Assembly (NCBI GenBank): GCA_964621085.1
Contig: CAZUKY010000005.1
Coordinates: 4,991-68,990 of the forward strand
DNA from: an uncultured Gammaproteobacteria bacterium
GTDB taxonomy: Bacteria; Patescibacteriota; Patescibacteriia; JACQRZ01
Reading direction: 5' to 3'
Length of the DNA stretch: 64,000 bases
Shown here: one piece after another, positions 6,547 through 15,414 of the stretch
Numbering within the stretch: the stretch's first letter is position 1
Layout of the letters: every line of letters starts with the position of its first letter
The notes under the pieces: model-generated
The model's input: the letters and a program-made list of their open reading frames with translations, nothing else
What the model was told of the DNA's origin: nothing
Database searches by the model: none
Made by a program: the position numbers and the translations under genes

Positions 6547-6792
6547 ATGTACGACCAGAACAATCAGGGTCCTGCCCCGATGCGTCAGCTGTTTGACGTC
6601 ACGTCGCTCAACCTGACCTGCACCGAGTGCGGAGCGGCTATCGAAAAGCTGCCGTTCCAACCGACGGAAAAGGAAGACGGGACCTACGGCCGCATCTATT
6701 GCCGCGACTGTAACCGCAAGCGCCGCGAAAAGTTCGGCGGCCCGCGCAGCTTCGGTGGCCCGCGCCGCGACTACAATCAGGAAGCTGCATAA
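6547..6792 (+). CDS. Small zinc-ribbon protein (CxxC...CxxC)
   Basis: 81-aa ORF with CTEC...CRDC pairs and a Gly/Arg-rich tail; SD AGGTGA upstream. Confidence 0.6.
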   Translation: MYDQNNQGPAPMRQLFDVTSLNLTCTECGAAIEKLPFQPTEKEDGTYGRIYCRDCNRKRREKFGGPRSFGGPRRDYNQEAA

Positions 6793-7295
6793 ATTTCCTG
6801 AAACACGAAAAGACCCCGGTCATCCGGGGTCTTTGTCGTTAAAACGTTTTTCAGTTCTCTTCAGACCCTCAAGAACGCTATTTCCAAAAATAAAAACCCT
6901 CTTGCAGACGGCCATGGGGGGCCATAACCGTCTAAAAGAGGGTGGCATGCACAATCCCTATCCCACTCAGAACGCGCATCCGCATCGCTCTTCGCATGGC
7001 GAATGAAAATCCTGAGTGGGACGAGGAAAACCTCATCCCAGGGGTCTCTTCTTGAAAGAGCGGTGAGCGGGATCGTGCCAAGGACGAACAAAATGCCGAC
7101 TCTGACCACCGTTCCCCCCACTACGATGATGAGTTTAGCATTGGTTGATTGGTATGTCAATGGGTTTTTTGACAATTTACCAGAGAAATTGCTATTTTCT
7201 TTTTATTTATAACAAAAATATACTCTTTTTCGACGAAAAAATATCGTATTTTTGTCTTCCTGAGCCTATAAAAAATCCGGTTGTCCACAGAACTA

Positions 7296-7324
7296 TTGAC
7301 AAGCTCTAGCTATTTATCTATACT
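7296..7324 (+). promoter_or_regulatory. Near-consensus sigma70 promoter
   Basis: TTGACA (7296-7301), 17 nt, TATACT (7319-7324); no + strand protein gene downstream. Confidence 0.6.
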
Positions 7325-7331
7325 GCTATAT

Positions 7332-7790
7332 TATTCCCGAACTTCCGGAAGGTTGGGGTTTTTGCAGTAAGCTGCACTCAGCAATAAGGAACTGAAGGGA
7401 ATAAGGGGTGAGTGCGCGCCCCGGTGAGGCGTGCATAGCAAAAAAACGAAAGGAGGAACCCTATGAGCGGGAAGATCAGGCTTAGCGCCTACAAGCCCGG
7501 GCCAGATCGCCGATGCCACGAGAGTGGTGGCGGCGGAGGCCTGTAGCCCCTCCCGCGGGTGTCTGTCGTCGATAACGTCCCCGGTTGTCGATCATTTCCA
7601 AGCAGTTGGTACACGCCTTACAGCGTGCACCAGTAACTTCGGCTAAGACAGCCATACGTTACGAAACAGAAGGGCGCATCAAGCCCAACATGAGACCATC
7701 GCGACCCTAGGGCGACACCTGCGGCCCGAGGCTCATGCATCCCTTGGCCTCGGTGAGAGAGAACCTCTCCACCGGGGCCTATTTACATTC
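7332..7790 (+). ncRNA. Candidate structured noncoding transcript, unassigned class
   Basis: About 460 nt GC-rich with no ORF of 60 aa or more on the sense strand and multiple hairpins. Carries a consensus SD plus a 27-codon ORF (7463-7546). Convergent with the TrmB-like gene. Confidence 0.3.
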
Positions 7791-7798
7791 TAAAATAC

Positions 7799-8545
7799 TT
7801 AATCCGTAGGAAGATCCTTGCTGCCTTGCAGCGCAAGATCGAAAAGAAGGCGGAATGTATTTGCAAGCGTCTCACTTTCAATGAGAATCGTGTACATCTT
7901 TCCTTGGAACGTCGTAATGTCGATCTTCTTTCCGTAGACGCTAATACTGGACTTAAAGCCGCCCTTACTGTCCGGCAAAAAATAGCGGTTTGATTTTGCC
8001 GTCTTACCGGCTGGGGCGCCGGAATAAATGCCGTAAAATTCGGTACGGGCCTTCTTCAAGTGCTCCTGCAACGATTGCACGTCCTTTTTATCAAGAGTGG
8101 ACAAGAGCGCCTCTAAGTCGGTCAGTTCGTAGCAGGTCTTTTCCTGCAAAAATTCCATATCCGTAATATATGCGTGCACTCCTTCTTTCCCTTCGATCAC
8201 CTTTACGGTCGGGCGTTCCCCTCCCTGAAGAAGGTTAAGTTCCGGCATCGCGCGCTCGATATCTGACGCTTTATCCCGAAATTCGAGCTCTTTGCGCTTG
8301 ACGTATGAGTACAGTTTTTCCGGCGGCTCGGCGATATAATAACGTTTTTTGCCCTTGGTAACCGTAGACATGAGACCCTTTTCTACCAACGTCTCGATGG
8401 CATTGTAGATCGTCTGGCGCGAGAGTCGCGTCTTTTTTGTAATATCGATCACGGTGCTGGGGCCGGTCTCCAGCACATTTAGATATGTCTTCGTCTCGCC
8501 ATCGGAAAATCCCAGCGAGCGAAAGATTGGCGTCATGTCTGTCAT
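7799..8545 (-). CDS. TrmB-family transcriptional regulator (paralog 1)
   Basis: N-terminal winged-HTH ([41 protein letters not shown]); start overlaps the ruvB stop (ATGA). Confidence 0.8.
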
Positions 8546-9582
8546 AGGAATGCCTGTTGTGATGATTCTTGAGGTTTATGTTCCGATGAGTGATTGAGGT
8601 GCGCGTAGGCATGCTCGGTTGCGATGCGCCCGCGCGGAGTTCGCTGCAAAAAACCGATCTGCATAAGGTAGGGTTCGTGCACGTCCTCGATCGTCTCCAT
8701 TTCTTCAGAGAGCGATGCGGCAACCGTATTCAGCCCGACCGGCCCGCCGCCGAACTTACCGATAATCGTCTCGAGGATCCTGCGGTCCATCGCATCTAGG
8801 CCCTTCCTGTCGATGCCCATGGCGGTCAATGCTGCATCAGCACCCGCTTGCTCAATAATACCACTTCCCTTCACTTGCGCGTAGTCCCTTACGCGTTTGA
8901 GAAGCCGGTTCGCAATGCGCGGGGTACAGCGGGATCGTGAGGCGATCTCTGCCGCCCCATTGGCCTCGATGCCGATATTCAGAATGCGCGCCGAGCGCGC
9001 GAGAATATCTTTAATATCGTCATGGCTGTAAAAATCGAGGTGAAAAAGATTCCCGAAACGGTCGCGCAGCGGCCCGGACAACAGGCTGACGCGGGTTGTC
9101 GCACCGATAAGCGTGAAGCGCGGCAGATCGAGTCGGATCGTGCGCGCCGCCGGTCCTTTGCCCAGAACAATATCGAGCGCGTAATCCTCCATTGCCGGAT
9201 ACAGGCTCTCGGCGATGACTTTTGAGAGTCGGTGGATCTCGTCGATGAAAAGAATGTCGCCGTTTCCCAGATTTGTCAAAATGGCAGCTAAGTCACCGGC
9301 GCGCTCCAGCGCGGGCCCGGACGTAACGCGAATATTCGCACCCATCTCATTCGCGATCACGTGGGCCATTGTCGTCTTCCCGAGCCCGGGCGGCCCCGAG
9401 AGCAGAACATGCTCCAGATGCTCCTCCCGCTGTTTTGCCGCGTCGATAAAAATGCGCAAGTTGTCCTTGACGGCATGCTGCCCGATGTACTCGTTAAGCG
9501 TCTGCGGCCGCAGGCCGACATCAAAAAGACTGTCCTCGCCCTTGAGGTCTGGGATTGAAATATGTTCCTGAGAGGACTCCAT
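8542..9582 (-). CDS. ruvB: Holliday junction branch migration ATPase RuvB
   Basis: AAA+ Walker [10 protein letters not shown], sensor motifs and C-terminal winged helix; length typical. Confidence 0.95.
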
Positions 9583-10208: not shown

Positions 10209-10564
10209 TGGTGGAGATGGCGGGAGTCGAACCCGCGTGTCTCAGAGTTTTTCGTACCATCGTCTACGAACGTGTCTCCTTTCTTCAAAGGAGCAAAGCA
10301 GCGCTGCTATGGATCAGCGCATCCCCCTTCAGAAATTCGCTCTGGAGGGAACGGCTCAGCACGTTATCTTGAGATCTGACCGCCGTGCCAGCAATCAGAT
10401 CCGCATCCTCTCCTTAACGTCATTTTGGCGTACGAGGTGCTCCACCAATGACGGGGTGGCTTAGGCCGCCGCGGTTGTTTTTTTGAGCCTGATTTTACGG
10501 GATCGGACTCACTCCCGGCTCGCAGATGATACGCCTCGCTCAAGAGCGAAACCGTTACATCCCC
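10209..10564 (-). ncRNA. ssrA: tmRNA (SsrA), one-piece, CCA encoded
   Basis: 5' GGGGATGTAACGGTTTCG and 3' GCGGGTTCGACTCCCGCCATCTCCACCA; acceptor stem with the G3:U70 alanine identity pair; T-arm GGTTCGACTCC. Confidence 0.85.
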
Positions 10565-12506: not shown

Positions 12507-12757
12507 TGGGCATGCTCCTTTCGTATCTGCCCCCGATCGAATCTCCTCCTCAAGGACTCGATTCTGTCAACCAACATCCGGCAGTCTAGCATAGTTGAGA
12601 TATTATGTCAAGTATTTACTTTAAATAATTTATAGTAATCTTTAATTTAATTATAAATATAACGAAAAAAATATGACATATAGTCATATTATTTCTTTAT
12701 AATACAATTTCATACTGGGGAATATTCCTCAATATGTCATTTTCTTCTAACGGATAC

Positions 12758-12786
12758 TTGACAATATCGAACTGATCTGCTATGCT
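12758..12786 (+). promoter_or_regulatory. Near-consensus sigma70 promoter
   Basis: TTGACA (12758-12763), 17 nt, TATGCT (12781-12786), at the end of an AT-rich tract. Confidence 0.55.
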
Positions 12787-12792
12787 TATACG

Positions 12793-13116
12793 GTCACTGG
12801 ATAGCGGTATTCGCCAAATCACCGGCGACACCGCTGAATGCGAGCCCAGAAAGGAGGAACTTTATGGGCTCTTCCGAAGGGTAGGGGTAAATAACCCCTA
12901 GTCTCTCCGAACGCGCTCCTCTCGCGTTTCGGGTACAGAGATCCACGTACGACACATCGGTCGAGAAATGCCGGAGAACTTCGGCATGCCGAGCGTCATG
13001 CTCACTACTCGACCGCAAACTCGGTTTCCGTTCCACTGCAGAGAGGAGGAATGCAATGGGCTGTGGGAACTGATCCCCTTTGGGGGCGCCAAGCTGCCGC
13101 GTTAGTGCAGCTTTTT
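12793..13116 (+). ncRNA. Candidate structured noncoding transcript, unassigned class
   Basis: About 320 nt with nested hairpins, two SD-ATGGGCT micro-ORFs (6 and 5 codons) and a hairpin + T5 terminator; convergent with TrmB paralog 2. Confidence 0.3.
13091..13116. terminator. Intrinsic terminator, likely bidirectional
   Basis: AAGCTGC-loop-GCAGCTT followed by TTTTT on the + strand; lies just past the TrmB2 stop on the minus strand. Confidence 0.6.
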
Positions 13117-13137
13117 ACTTTGTGCAATAAGTGCGGA

Positions 13138-13890
13138 TTAGTCCGAGGGAAATTTCTTTGCGGTCTCTGTTGCAAGTTTAAAAAGAATGCGGAGGGTTTG
13201 CGCCAGGGCTTCATTCTCAATAATCACGGATTGGATCCCTCCCTTTACCGATACGAGAGAAATCTTATTTTTATAGATAAGCACGTCTGTCCCGAAGTTC
13301 CCGTATTCTTTTGGCAAGTAGTGGCGAATCGAGCGCGCACTTCTGCCCTTTGGCGCACCCGTAAGCAGGCCATGGAAAGAAATGGTCTTGTTTTCTAAAA
13401 GTTTTTTTCGGATCAGGGAAACATCTGTTTCGTCAAAAATGGCATAAATGGCATCGAGGTCGGCGATCTCGTAAATGATTTCATTGTCGGTGGTTGACGC
13501 CATGTCCATGAATACCTGCATAGCACCCTCCTTGCCGTCATACACGCGGACCGATGTTTGTTGGGTGGCCTTTTTAAGCTTCAACTCAGGAAGAAGCTCT
13601 TTCAAATCTGACTCGAACTGCGACAGCTCGTGCGCCTTGCGGCTGATATATTGCCCGATTTTTTCGGGATCGTCGACGACGTAGTATTTTTTCTTTCCTC
13701 GTGTAACACTGGACATCAGTCCTTTATTCGCCAAAGACTCTACGGCAACATATGTCGCTTGCCGAGAGAGTTGCGTGTATTTGGCAAGATCAATAATACT
13801 GGTAGTCCCTCTTTCAAGGGCAACAAGATACGTCTTAATCTCACTTTCGAGAAATCCGAGCGACTTGAGTAGAGAGTGAATGGTCTGCAT
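13138..13890 (-). CDS. TrmB-family transcriptional regulator (paralog 2)
   Basis: Aligns along its full length with the 7799-8545 product (same HTH, same C-terminal domain). Confidence 0.8.
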   Translation of the reverse strand: MQTIHSLLKSLGFLESEIKTYLVALERGTTSIIDLAKYTQLSRQATYVAVESLANKGLMSSVTRGKKKYYVVDDPEKIGQYISRKAHELSQFESDLKELLPELKLKKATQQTSVRVYDGKEGAMQVFMDMASTTDNEIIYEIADLDAIYAIFDETDVSLIRKKLLENKTISFHGLLTGAPKGRSARSIRHYLPKEYGNFGTDVLIYKNKISLVSVKGGIQSVIIENEALAQTLRILFKLATETAKKFPSD

Positions 13891-13922
13891 AGATCGATAC
13901 GTTCATTTTCGTATGAATCCTA

Positions 13923-14369
13923 TCAGGAAGCATAAAGAATCTCAAATGTGATATGGATCGCGTCGGTGGGCACGATATCGCGGACTCGCTCGGGCCACTC
14001 GATAAACGTTACGGTGTCCGGACTGCCCAGATAATCCACTGCGCCGATCGCGGCGAGTTCGGCTCCTGACGAGAGCCGGTACGCATCGATGTGGCACAGG
14101 GAAAGTCGCTCCCCACGGTAGGTTTTCATGAGAACAAATGTCGGGCTTGTGACGGTCTCGTGCACGCCCAGGGCATGAGCGCATGATTGGACAAAGGTCG
14201 TCTTGCCCGATCCTAGATTTCCGGAAAGCGCGACGATCTCTCCGCCCCGGAGCGTCGAAACGAAACTGCGCGCGAGCGCAACAGTATCCTGAAGCGACGC
14301 AGCCTCGTGCGCCTTCTCTTCGCCGGCGTGCTTGATCGTAATAAGCCGCTTATGCGGATGTTTTTCCAT
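13923..14369 (-). CDS. tsaE: tRNA t6A37 biosynthesis ATPase TsaE
   Basis: P-loop GNLGSGKTT; YjeE-like size; overlaps the tsaD stop. Confidence 0.85.
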   Translation of the reverse strand: MEKHPHKRLITIKHAGEEKAHEAASLQDTVALARSFVSTLRGGEIVALSGNLGSGKTTFVQSCAHALGVHETVTSPTFVLMKTYRGERLSLCHIDAYRLSSGAELAAIGAVDYLGSPDTVTFIEWPERVRDIVPTDAIHITFEILYAS

Positions 14370-15414
14370 ACAGCGTCCAGTTAGGGTCTGCAGAAAGTTT
14401 TTCCCACGGCGTAAAAAGTTTCTTCTCTGCGCGGAAATACCCGGCCAATGCGATCATTACCGCATTATCCGTACAGTAGCCAAGACTCGGATAATAATAC
14501 GAGACTCCGGGCAGAGTGCGAGTCACCGCTTCCCCAAGCGCAGCGCGCAGCTGCCGATTCGCAACCACGCCGCCCCCGAGCACGATCGAACGAACGCGCT
14601 CTCGTCCGGCCGCGCGGATCGTCTTTGCAACCAGAACATCGGTGACCGCACTCTCGAACTCGGCACAGATGTCGGCAATCGCTTTCTTGGTAAACTTTTT
14701 TTCTTTTTTCATACGTTCGACAAGATAGAGCACGGCGGTCTTGAGGCCGCTAAAGCTGAACGCGTCGTCGCCCGAGTCGATCATCGGCCGAGGCAAGTGA
14801 AAGACGCCCGGACGCCCCTTTTGCGCCCAGCGGGAAATCTCGGGACCGCCGGGGTAGCCGAGCCCCATGATCTTTGCCGCCTTGTCAAACGCCTCTCCTG
14901 CCGCGTCGTCGCGGGTCGCTCCCAGCAGCCGATACTTCCCATGAGATTTCATGTGGTTCAGCTCTGTATGGCCGCCTGAGACCACCAGCGCCAGCGCGGG
15001 AAAAGCGATGTCAGAGTGCTCCATCCAGTTTGCAATGATATGGCCCTCGATATGATTGACGGACACGAGCGGCTTTTTCCAAAGATAGGCAAGCGTCCGC
15101 GCCGTCTCGACGCCGACCAACAGCGACGTGACCAGTCCCGGACCGGCAGTTACCGCGATCACATCTGGTTTCACCCCACCAAGCGCCTTCTCGATGACCG
15201 GAACGATCTTGAGAATGTGATTGCGCGCGGCACCCTCAGGCACGACCCCGCCGGTTTTCGCATGAATCTTCACCTGCGATGCCACAACGTTTGACCGCAA
15301 GACAAAACGCCCACGCTTCACTTCCAACAGCGCGGCAGCTGTCTCGTCACACGAGCTTTCAATGCCAAGGATTTTCATACATATAAAGCAGTACGAGTGT
15401 ATCAGTGTTTGCAT
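14350..15414 (-). CDS. tsaD: tRNA N6-adenosine threonylcarbamoyltransferase TsaD
   Basis: Kae1/Gcp family; MKILGIESSCDETAAAL start motif (true start probably the internal Met at about 15378). Confidence 0.9.
   Translation of the reverse strand: MQTLIHSYCFICMKILGIESSCDETAAALLEVKRGRFVLRSNVVASQVKIHAKTGGVVPEGAARNHILKIVPVIEKALGGVKPDVIAVTAGPGLVTSLLVGVETARTLAYLWKKPLVSVNHIEGHIIANWMEHSDIAFPALALVVSGGHTELNHMKSHGKYRLLGATRDDAAGEAFDKAAKIMGLGYPGGPEISRWAQKGRPGVFHLPRPMIDSGDDAFSFSGLKTAVLYLVERMKKEKKFTKKAIADICAEFESAVTDVLVAKTIRAAGRERVRSIVLGGGVVANRQLRAALGEAVTRTLPGVSYYYPSLGYCTDNAVMIALAGYFRAEKKLFTPWEKLSADPNWTLYGKTSA

Follow-up and report, generated by a model that had tools for sequence, protein, structure and literature searches.

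A TrmBL2-like protein gene and a convergent RNA with very short open reading frames: a candidate two-gene cassette of Uhrbacteria-like bacteria

What occupies the gene-free gap that faces the 3′ end of a TrmB-like gene in the 64,000-nt stretch of contig CAZUKY010000005.1 analyzed here (the window)? A reading made from the letters alone, hereafter the sequence-only reading, had placed there a near-perfect σ70 promoter firing into about 460 nt of hairpin-dense sequence, and had taken the product, which we call RNA-1, for a large structured RNA. Our best explanation, to which we give an even chance of being correct as a whole, is that RNA-1 and the TrmB-like gene are a divergent copy of a two-gene cassette of Uhrbacteria-like bacteria of the candidate phyla radiation (CPR), consisting of a TrmBL2-like protein and a convergent RNA. 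The literature on CPR non-coding RNAs, on TrmB with non-coding RNAs, and on minigenes and start–stop open reading frames (ORFs), in a search that did not span all journals, contained no description of such a cassette, and the unit is apparently undescribed so far.

RNA-1 and the protein encoded opposite it

The features of the unit are as follows, in window coordinates (SD, Shine–Dalgarno sequence; MFE, minimum free energy).

7281–7302, + strand: candidate operator, inverted repeat TTGTCCA-N8-TTGACAA, with the −35 hexamer of the RNA-1 promoter as its right half
7296–7324, + strand: RNA-1 promoter of the σ70 type, TTGACA-17-TATACT (−35 at 7296–7301, −10 at 7319–7324)
7331–7791, + strand: predicted RNA-1, about 455 nt, its start (about 7331) placed from the promoter and its end from the hairpin
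7332–7403, + strand: 5′-terminal stem-loop domain, present in the MFE and centroid structures
7449–7546, + strand: putative ribosome-binding module, with SD AAAGGAGG at 7449–7456, AUG at 7463–7465 and stop codon UAG at 7544–7546
7689–7737, 7716–7755 and 7746–7779, + strand: three mutually exclusive helices of the 3′ region (sub-sequence folds of −21.6, −15.8 and −27.9 kcal/mol, respectively)
7799–8545, − strand: gene of TrmB-like (TrmBL2-like) DNA-binding protein 1, convergent with RNA-1

The promoter agreed with the consensus at 11 of 12 positions, and only four matches of this quality were present on the two strands of the 64-kb window. On the + strand, 7331–7800 contained no ORF of 60 aa or more (the longest were of 40–41 aa), and an independent gene caller (L001) also left the 1-kb gap that holds RNA-1 free of genes. 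The stretch folded with an MFE of −198 kcal/mol on the + strand (z = −5.7 relative to shuffled sequences; z = −3.6 on the − strand). The sequence-only reading was therefore correct about the promoter, the lack of a sense ORF, the density of hairpins and the head-on orientation toward the TrmB-like gene. It was also correct that RNA-1 matches no known family: Rfam 15 yielded no match in 6800–7900 or 12750–13140 at gathering thresholds and only far-sub-threshold chance matches, none credible, at E ≤ 10, and the RNA regions of 15 homologous loci were likewise without a match at gathering thresholds. Its statement that there was no obvious terminator did not hold. The hairpin at 7746–7779 (15 bp, G+C-rich) is terminator-like, with UAUUUACAUUCU directly 3′ and a U-rich tail at 7780–7791; it ends about 18 nt short of the TrmB stop codon, and it was overlooked by the terminator scan because its U-tract is broken. 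In homologues, canonical terminators were found at the same place. Antisense read-through from RNA-1 into the TrmB-like gene is possible; this end of RNA-1 has a terminator-like hairpin, and strong terminators occur in relatives. Together, these features support RNA-1 as a predicted transcription unit that has its own promoter, encodes no protein of ordinary size and runs toward the TrmB-like gene.

TrmB-like gene 1 overlaps the stop codon of ruvB (8542–9582) by 4 nt and is therefore probably co-transcribed with ruvB. Its product matched the Pfam TrmB family (PF01978) through an N-terminal winged helix (54 bits; cut-off, 25.6), and residues 3–104 matched the PDB profile of 3qph. An AlphaFold2 model (predicted local distance difference test score, 92.5) aligned over its full length with archaeal TrmBL2 (5box and 5bqt; Foldseek E ~1e-12, ~270 columns), and the C-terminal domain was PLD/Nuc-like (1byr and 4ggj). 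The NCBIfam equivalogs of the sugar-sensing TrmB and TrmBL1 scored 21–31 bits against cut-offs of 500–650, in the N-terminal part only. As modelled, the protein is a full-length TrmBL2-like DNA binder with a winged helix-turn-helix (HTH), coiled-coil and PLD-like architecture. It shares with TrmBL2 and TrmB the PF01978 winged helix, the long coiled-coil helix and the PLD/Nuc-like C-terminal domain, but differs from archaeal TrmBL2 in being bacterial (CPR), ~14% identical and paired with an RNA gene. The family comprised 629 clusters at E ≤ 1e-30, and the homologues were mostly named Candidatus Uhrbacteria or Patescibacteria; the window itself belongs to a CPR/Patescibacteria genome, and the best relatives of RuvB were from Candidatus Buchananbacteria and Uhrbacteria (67–68% identity). 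Membership in an anti-phage defence system was considered and rejected, as PADLOC returned only HTH-level matches to CasR, Csa3 and CARF models.

A family of TrmB-linked RNAs and its conserved modules

Because searches with the RNA sequence found nothing, the comparison was anchored on the TrmB-like protein. Loci were collected as homologues of this protein (38–64% identical) from Uhrbacteria-like CPR genomes and metagenomes, and are cited below by number. The neighbourhoods varied, with the TrmB-like gene located after ruvB, tsaD-tsaE, rpsF-ssb-rpsR, lgt or a tRNA gene, or standing alone. In almost every locus with enough sequence, the 300–800 nt directly past the TrmB stop codon were free of genes. 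The convergent strand of this region carried a promoter of the form TTGACA-N14-TGnTAnnnT (consensus in at least 20 loci). Most of the predicted RNAs open with a hairpin immediately 3′ of the inferred start; next come 270–660 nt of little conservation and then an intrinsic terminator, whose U-tract often overlapped the TrmB stop codon. A canonical unit of this kind, including the modules described below, was present in about 22 loci (RNA-2 of the window included). The sequence-only reading had tied its proposal to conservation in related genomes, and the RNA-1-type unit does recur in these loci. When further loci were added once the pattern was defined, L121, L122/L123 and L124 carried the unit and L126 was without it.

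In an all-against-all comparison, the closest RNAs had only two short blocks in common, each of which was a module. In a module, an A/C-rich tract precedes AAGGAGG, and AUG follows after 5–7 nt; the ORF continues with a second codon of any kind, then GGN GGN and a stop. There are usually two modules per RNA. The peptides that the modules would encode include MGGG, MNGG, MEGG, MDGG, MAGG, MQGG, MFGG, MSDG, MLDG, MGNG and MTGA, as well as MGW, MNG, MAG, MGGGQ, MGGGN and similar sequences. A strict form of the motif (GG[AGT]GG-N4-9-ATG-NNN-GGN-GGN-stop) gave 16 distinct matches, all on the convergent strand; 1.68 Mb of control sequence and the rest of the window yielded no match. A phage origin was rejected on the basis of an IMG/VR motif scan, which gave 60 single, chance-like matches, none tandem or beside a TrmB gene; the 41 exact strict matches with a true stop codon in IMG/VR (all) were likewise single, chance-like and none near a TrmB gene, and two double matches lay within a phage protein gene.

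The window itself contains a second copy of the unit, RNA-2 (12758–13125), which adjoins a paralogue of the TrmB-like gene.

12758–12786, + strand: RNA-2 promoter, TTGACA-17-TATGCT with an extended −10 TG (sequence match)
12793–13125, + strand: predicted RNA-2, the more typical copy, convergent with TrmB-like paralogue 2 (from sequence and fold)
12850–12884, + strand: RNA-2 module 1, AAAGGAGG-N6-AUG GGC UCU UCC GAA GGG UAG (MGSSEG; profile match at 12843–12870, 9.8 bits)
13043–13073, + strand: RNA-2 module 2, GAGGAGG-N6-AUG GGC UGU GGG AAC UGA (MGCGN; profile match at 13031–13067, 11.9 bits, the best in the window)
13138–13890, − strand: TrmB-like protein 2, downstream of tsaD-tsaE, 40% identical to protein 1 (BLASTP E = 4e-64; L001 gene calls)

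A hairpin begins 1 nt past the stop codon of RNA-2 module 2, and the terminator hairpin (13091–13113) is followed by U5. The profile scores were obtained with a hidden Markov model of the module that was trained on other loci only, without window sequences, and searched against both strands of the window (128 kb). Its third-best match, after the two modules of RNA-2, was the RNA-1 module (7447–7470, 8.7 bits), and all three outscored every match in 838 kb of control loci, where none reached 8 bits.

RNA-1 has the synteny and architecture common to the family: the same position and orientation, a promoter with the operator half-site, and hairpins at its 5′ and 3′ ends. Its module contains, as the sequence-only reading had noted, a consensus SD and a 27-codon ORF, with a spacing from GGAGG to AUG of 6 nt rather than the 7 nt given there. 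The ORF (translation, MSGKIRLSAYKPGPDRRCHESGGGGGL) ends with the codons GGC GGC GGA GGC CUG UAG. It looks as if it were an expanded version of the family's 4-codon ORF, as though a structured insert had split a normal module, and ORFs that start in a similar manner were found in L087 (MSGGLVHPNS) and L124 (MSGGGCG). Since the ORF is stretched and no second SD-bearing module is present (a second candidate ORF at 7690–7710 has no SD), we count RNA-1 as divergent within the family and RNA-2 as typical of it. As to the genes around them, the order tsaD-tsaE-ruvB-TrmB was observed in L124 and L126, and the window has it split into ruvB-TrmB1 and tsaD-tsaE-TrmB2 (8542–9582 and 13138–15000); this split suggests that the whole cassette was duplicated and then rearranged.

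The sequence-only reading had treated the SD and AUG as a side element of the structured RNA and had proposed a search for compensatory base changes. The comparison gave a different picture. The hairpin-dense body was not conserved even between the closest relatives, the homologous loci showed no covariation-supported fold, and the conserved part of the family was the SD–AUG itself, opening an ORF of about 4 codons that ends Gly-Gly-stop. This suggests that the ribosome, and not a large RNA fold, is what the TrmB-linked RNA acts through. The SD–AUG spacing was 5–7 nt in 29 of 35 modules, the stop codons of these modules were divided among UAG (16), UGA (11) and UAA (8), and the Gly codons differed in their wobble base. 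The AUG was unvarying in the aligned modules; this is not independent evidence, because ATG was required by the search pattern. When the requirement for a stop codon was removed, 30 of 41 GGAGG–AUG sites opened ORFs of 3–6 codons, most often of exactly 4 (19 sites), whereas the other two frames did so at 15 and 5 sites. Longer variants still ended in Gly(-Gly)-stop (…YGG in L111 and …FSG in L091). Spacing, stop usage, Gly wobble and ORF length point to genuine translation signals rather than to an RNA helix. A helix between the C-rich tract 5′ of the SD and the GGNGG codons was tried and rejected, as the mean z of the duplex energy was only −0.6, and neither a helix enclosing the motif nor covariation was detected. 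Recoding at the Gly-stop and hairpin (bypassing, readthrough or frameshifting) was also considered, and was rejected because no downstream ORF was conserved. At the 3′ module, a very stable hairpin (z −2.5 to −7) lay within 0–11 nt and was often the terminator itself; the ORF and terminator were adjacent in L084, L101, L092, L106, L087 and L122.

One subfamily (L088, L089, L096 and L121) carried, in the 5′ part of the RNA, an additional upstream SD (SD0) with a non-conserved ORF of 42–81 codons. Between SD0 and the SD of mini-ORF 1 (SD1) was a CCUCC anti-SD able to pair with either, an arrangement that looks like a translational switch before mini-ORF 1.

A proposed ribosome-dependent mechanism and its alternatives

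How might the two genes act on each other? A half-site TTGTC(A/C)A located exactly 8 nt 5′ of the −35 hexamer was matched at 6 or more of 7 positions in 7 of 24 family promoters, RNA-1 (6 of 7) among them, compared with a background of 0.7% in shuffled sequences (p = 4e-10). With TTGACAA it forms a 7-8-7 palindrome. We infer that a TrmB-like dimer binds this TTGTCMA-N8-TTGACA palindrome over the −35 hexamer as its putative site. Since the core promoter needs no help to match the consensus, repression seems more probable than activation.

Our best explanation of function, which we regard as having an even chance, is a TrmBL2-like-controlled RNA whose action depends on ribosome loading of the mini-ORFs. 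The TrmB-like dimer on the palindrome would gate the RNA promoter, most likely by repression, and ribosomes would load on the mini-ORFs once the RNA is made. By analogy with mccA, a ribosome on the 3′ mini-ORF would abut the strong hairpin or terminator 0–11 nt downstream. The loaded ribosome would then decide the 3′ end of the RNA, that is, termination or antisense read-through into the TrmB-like gene, and would also set RNA stability, with fMet-x-Gly-Gly made repeatedly. In this manner, the cassette would link transcriptional switching with the condition of the translation machinery. A further reading, which we put forward tentatively and consider doubtful, is a CPR-specific device of a kind not known before: an abundant RNA would be under the control of a TrmBL2-like repressor, and its tandem Met-x-Gly-Gly ORFs would capture ribosomes in repeated rounds of start and stop or charge tRNA-Gly as peptidyl-tRNA, thereby throttling or sensing translation and feeding back on the regulator through convergent transcription.

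In mccA, binding of the ribosome to a 7-codon ORF controls an adjacent terminator and stabilizes a short RNA. Ribosomes also translate short ORFs over and over without being released, and this reiterative translation has been offered as the reason why the length of the ORF is kept but not its sequence (PMC4231749, PMC6495379). The TrmB-linked RNAs resemble the short, abundant, ribosome-bound mccA transcript in the strong SD, the tiny ORF and the intrinsic terminator hairpin directly 3′. An SD, an ORF of at most ~7 codons and a hairpin directly 3′ were found together in the 3′ modules of the family, including that of RNA-2; in RNA-1, the hairpin after the 27-codon ORF is weak. They differ from mccA in having ~4 codons, a Gly-Gly end rather than Asn, a usually tandem arrangement, a convergent link to TrmB and an occurrence in CPR, and gene calls and Pfam revealed no ThiF/MccB-like gene or co-directional downstream gene around at least 10 loci.

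The leader-peptide attenuators (trp, his, pheA and pyrBI) are similar in that a short ORF enriched in the codons of one amino acid, here Gly, precedes a terminator, and the three mutually exclusive 3′ helices of RNA-1, which are without covariation support, recall them as well. The ORF and terminator were adjacent in the six loci named above, and in others they were more than 40 nt apart. The TrmB-linked RNAs are unlike attenuators in that the ORF is much shorter, the second module is far from any terminator, and the RNA is followed by no structural gene on its own strand. What comes next is in every case the convergent TrmB-like gene, reached from its 3′ end, and the antisense of that gene is the only downstream target.

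Lambda bar and synthetic minigenes are reported to have 2–6 codons and to cause peptidyl-tRNA drop-off with Pth-dependent toxicity (PMC2490762, PMC8708949). The resemblance lies in an SD followed by an ORF of a few codons at high (here predicted) expression, with the last sense codon setting the tRNA that can be sequestered, here tRNA-Gly; an SD with an ORF of this size was found at the 30 sites, of 41, that open 3–6 codons. Unlike lambda bar, the TrmB-linked units are conserved and chromosomal, are neither phage-borne nor artificial, and appear to have a dedicated regulator. Linkage to tRNA-Gly genes was considered and rejected as a general feature, being observed only in L106 and L083. In L106 (4577–5000), and in this locus only, the mini-ORF RNA is immediately preceded on its own strand by a tRNA-Gly(GCC)/tRNA-Met(CAU)/tRNA-Gly(UCC) cluster, which corresponds to the amino acids that the mini-ORFs would encode.

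Dual-function small RNAs (sRNAs), such as SgrS/SgrT, RNAIII/hld and SR1/SR1P, are also stand-alone transcripts with a small ORF, and in Rgg-SHP pairs a regulator gene adjoins a tiny ORF, sometimes convergently. The ORFs of the SgrT, hld, SR1P and SHP type have 20–45 codons and encode conserved peptides; TPR proteins serve as receptors of the SHPs, which are exported and hydrophobic. The TrmB-linked RNAs have none of these features (20–45 codons, a conserved exported peptide or a TPR receptor).

Several observations weigh against the ribosome-dependent cassette. Downstream of the TrmB-like gene, 5 loci had a promoter-driven RNA without canonical modules and 5 others had a protein-coding gene in that position. 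The operator half-site was clear in only about one-third to one-half of the promoters and weak at RNA-2. Across loci, mini-ORF 2 lay anywhere between 5 nt and more than 100 nt from the true terminator, and terminator control therefore cannot be universal. The predicted accessibility of the SD–AUG was only marginally above the RNA average (p = 0.054). RNA-1 itself is atypical, with its 27-codon ORF and single module, and nhmmer, blastn and pairwise comparisons gave no alignable close relative: nhmmer and blastn found no homologue in 80 RuvB-anchored CPR/Firmicutes loci or in all TrmB loci, and aligning RNA-1 pairwise to the corresponding 3′ end in L082, which has the closest TrmB relative, gave no convincing result. 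Finally, the mini-ORF was nucleotide-identical among close relatives, for example AUGGGCGGUGGCUGA in L088, L089 and L096, which hints at constraint at the RNA level as well.

Such nucleotide identity counts in favour of an untranslated regulatory sRNA, in which the GGAGG boxes and G-rich tract would act as a decoy for the anti-SD or the 30S subunit (STAB-SD type) or as a protein site, and the AUG and stop codon would be by-products. GGAGG was 4.3-fold enriched in the RNAs (62 observed vs 14.5 expected), one module type has a second GGAGG inside the ORF (AUG AAC GGA GGC UAG), and a 5′ hairpin followed by an SD recalls the 5′ stabilizers of Gram-positive bacteria. We nevertheless consider an untranslated sRNA unlikely, since it leaves unexplained the AUG at optimal spacing, the in-frame stop at codon 5 in all three types and the Gly wobble, and the motif showed neither helix nor covariation. 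A sponge is a special case. CsrB/RsmZ sponges have ~7–20 GGA motifs in hairpin loops and a CsrA/RsmA partner, and the 2–4 GGA/GGAGG per RNA found here are far below that. This candidate was rejected: there were ~2.5 GGAGG per RNA, and GGAGG alone explained the excess of GGA. No CsrA gene was present in the window, which is weak evidence because the window covers only part of the genome. The translation-like features of the modules count equally for another possibility, that the RNA simply serves as an mRNA encoding one tetrapeptide or a pair of them (fMet-x-Gly-Gly), with the peptide itself as the effector, either as a ligand of the PLD-like C-terminal domain of the TrmB-like protein or as a precursor modified in the manner of MccA. 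The sharp retention of ORF length at 4 codons and of the C-terminal Gly-Gly, also in longer variants, is compatible with this, the two paralogous regulator–RNA pairs in one genome look cognate, and mccA is a real 7-codon gene. A peptide effector nonetheless seems rather unlikely to us, as residue 2 is free and the two peptides of one RNA differ; the copies in the window encode MSGK… (27 aa), MGSSEG and MGCGN, and therefore no specific ligand is conserved. The peptides also carry no export signal. The neighbouring genes vary among loci, with neither a transporter nor a modifying enzyme conserved among them, and the TrmBL2 class is not known to bind ligands.

If the cassette was duplicated, RNA-1 could be a decaying, non-functional copy that lost its early stop codon and second module, with RNA-2 as the working one. 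Its ORF stretched to 27 codons, its one profile match, the candidate ORF at 7690–7710 without an SD and the lack of an alignable relative in the searches above all fit such decay. Against this, RNA-1 retains the 11/12 promoter, the 6/7 operator half-site at the exact spacing, the consensus SD, and the 5′ and terminator-like hairpins; its fold (z −5.7) is as strong as that of any member, and longer MSGG… variants occur in other lineages (L087 and L124). We accordingly regard decay as improbable. Coincidence, that is, a chance promoter-like site in a long intergenic spacer with functionless G+C-rich hairpins, might be argued from the 1.8 promoter-like matches expected per 2 kb at a lax threshold. 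It is highly improbable and largely refuted by the comparative data, as the full arrangement returns in about 22 loci whose remaining neighbours differ and the motif is missing from control sequence.

The ribosome-dependent cassette would matter in several respects. CPR/Patescibacteria make up a large share of bacterial diversity, with tiny genomes, few regulators and barely any experimental exploration, and a cassette of a regulator and a mini-ORF RNA would, if true, be among the first lineage-specific regulatory modules defined in CPR. If the four-codon ORFs are translated, they would lower the size floor of conserved genes below the 7 codons of mccA, and we know of no shorter conserved genes. 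The cassette would also be a natural system for ribosome-controlled termination, reiterative translation and minigene effects. What is new in relation to tiny-ORF, leader-peptide and mccA systems is the stand-alone, tandem arrangement of ORFs of ~4 codons with a Gly-Gly end and the convergent link to a TrmBL2-like gene. That gene callers and Rfam both miss the unit shows a blind spot for elements that are neither protein genes nor structured RNAs of the usual type.

Other elements near the cassettes

A second candidate sRNA is predicted upstream of and divergent from RNA-1, at 6884–7160 on the − strand. Its promoter, TTGACA-17-TAAACT with an extended −10 TG, is at 7160–7132, and the predicted RNA (~240 nt, z = −5.6) ends at a clean terminator at about 6948–6884 (CCCUCUUUUAGACGG…CCGUCUGCAAGAGGG and a U-tract). 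It contained no SD–AUG module and gave no Rfam match, and no homologue was present in any collected locus.

In two unrelated genomes, the cassette promoter region also has a divergent consensus promoter (L121, 4735–7033; L122, 4756–6113). The predicted transcript there is a highly structured non-coding stretch of 0.8–1.6 kb that leads to a TROVE/Ro60 (Rsr-like) gene and contains repeated AGGACU(U/G)-type motifs, with no Rfam match at gathering thresholds. These structured stretches may be Y-RNA-like partners.

In L124 (3001–5348), two TrmB-like genes are arranged tail-to-tail, 800 nt apart. One has the mini-ORF RNA with MSGGGCG. For the other, the only convergent transcript predicted is an sRNA of ~100 nt that has a terminator and a consensus promoter (4409) but lacks a mini-ORF.

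The gene of the transfer-messenger RNA (tmRNA) is located between the two cassettes of the window (10209–10564, − strand), and in Uhrbacteria RIFCSPLOWO2_02_FULL_51_9 (L093/L118; L093 5290–5657) it is ~1.3 kb from the cassette; this proximity may be only shared synteny. The window also encodes, at 6547–6792, an 81-aa zinc-ribbon protein with a CxxC-x17-CxxC arrangement, which has a near-consensus promoter (6427) and a bidirectional-looking terminator (6809–6834).

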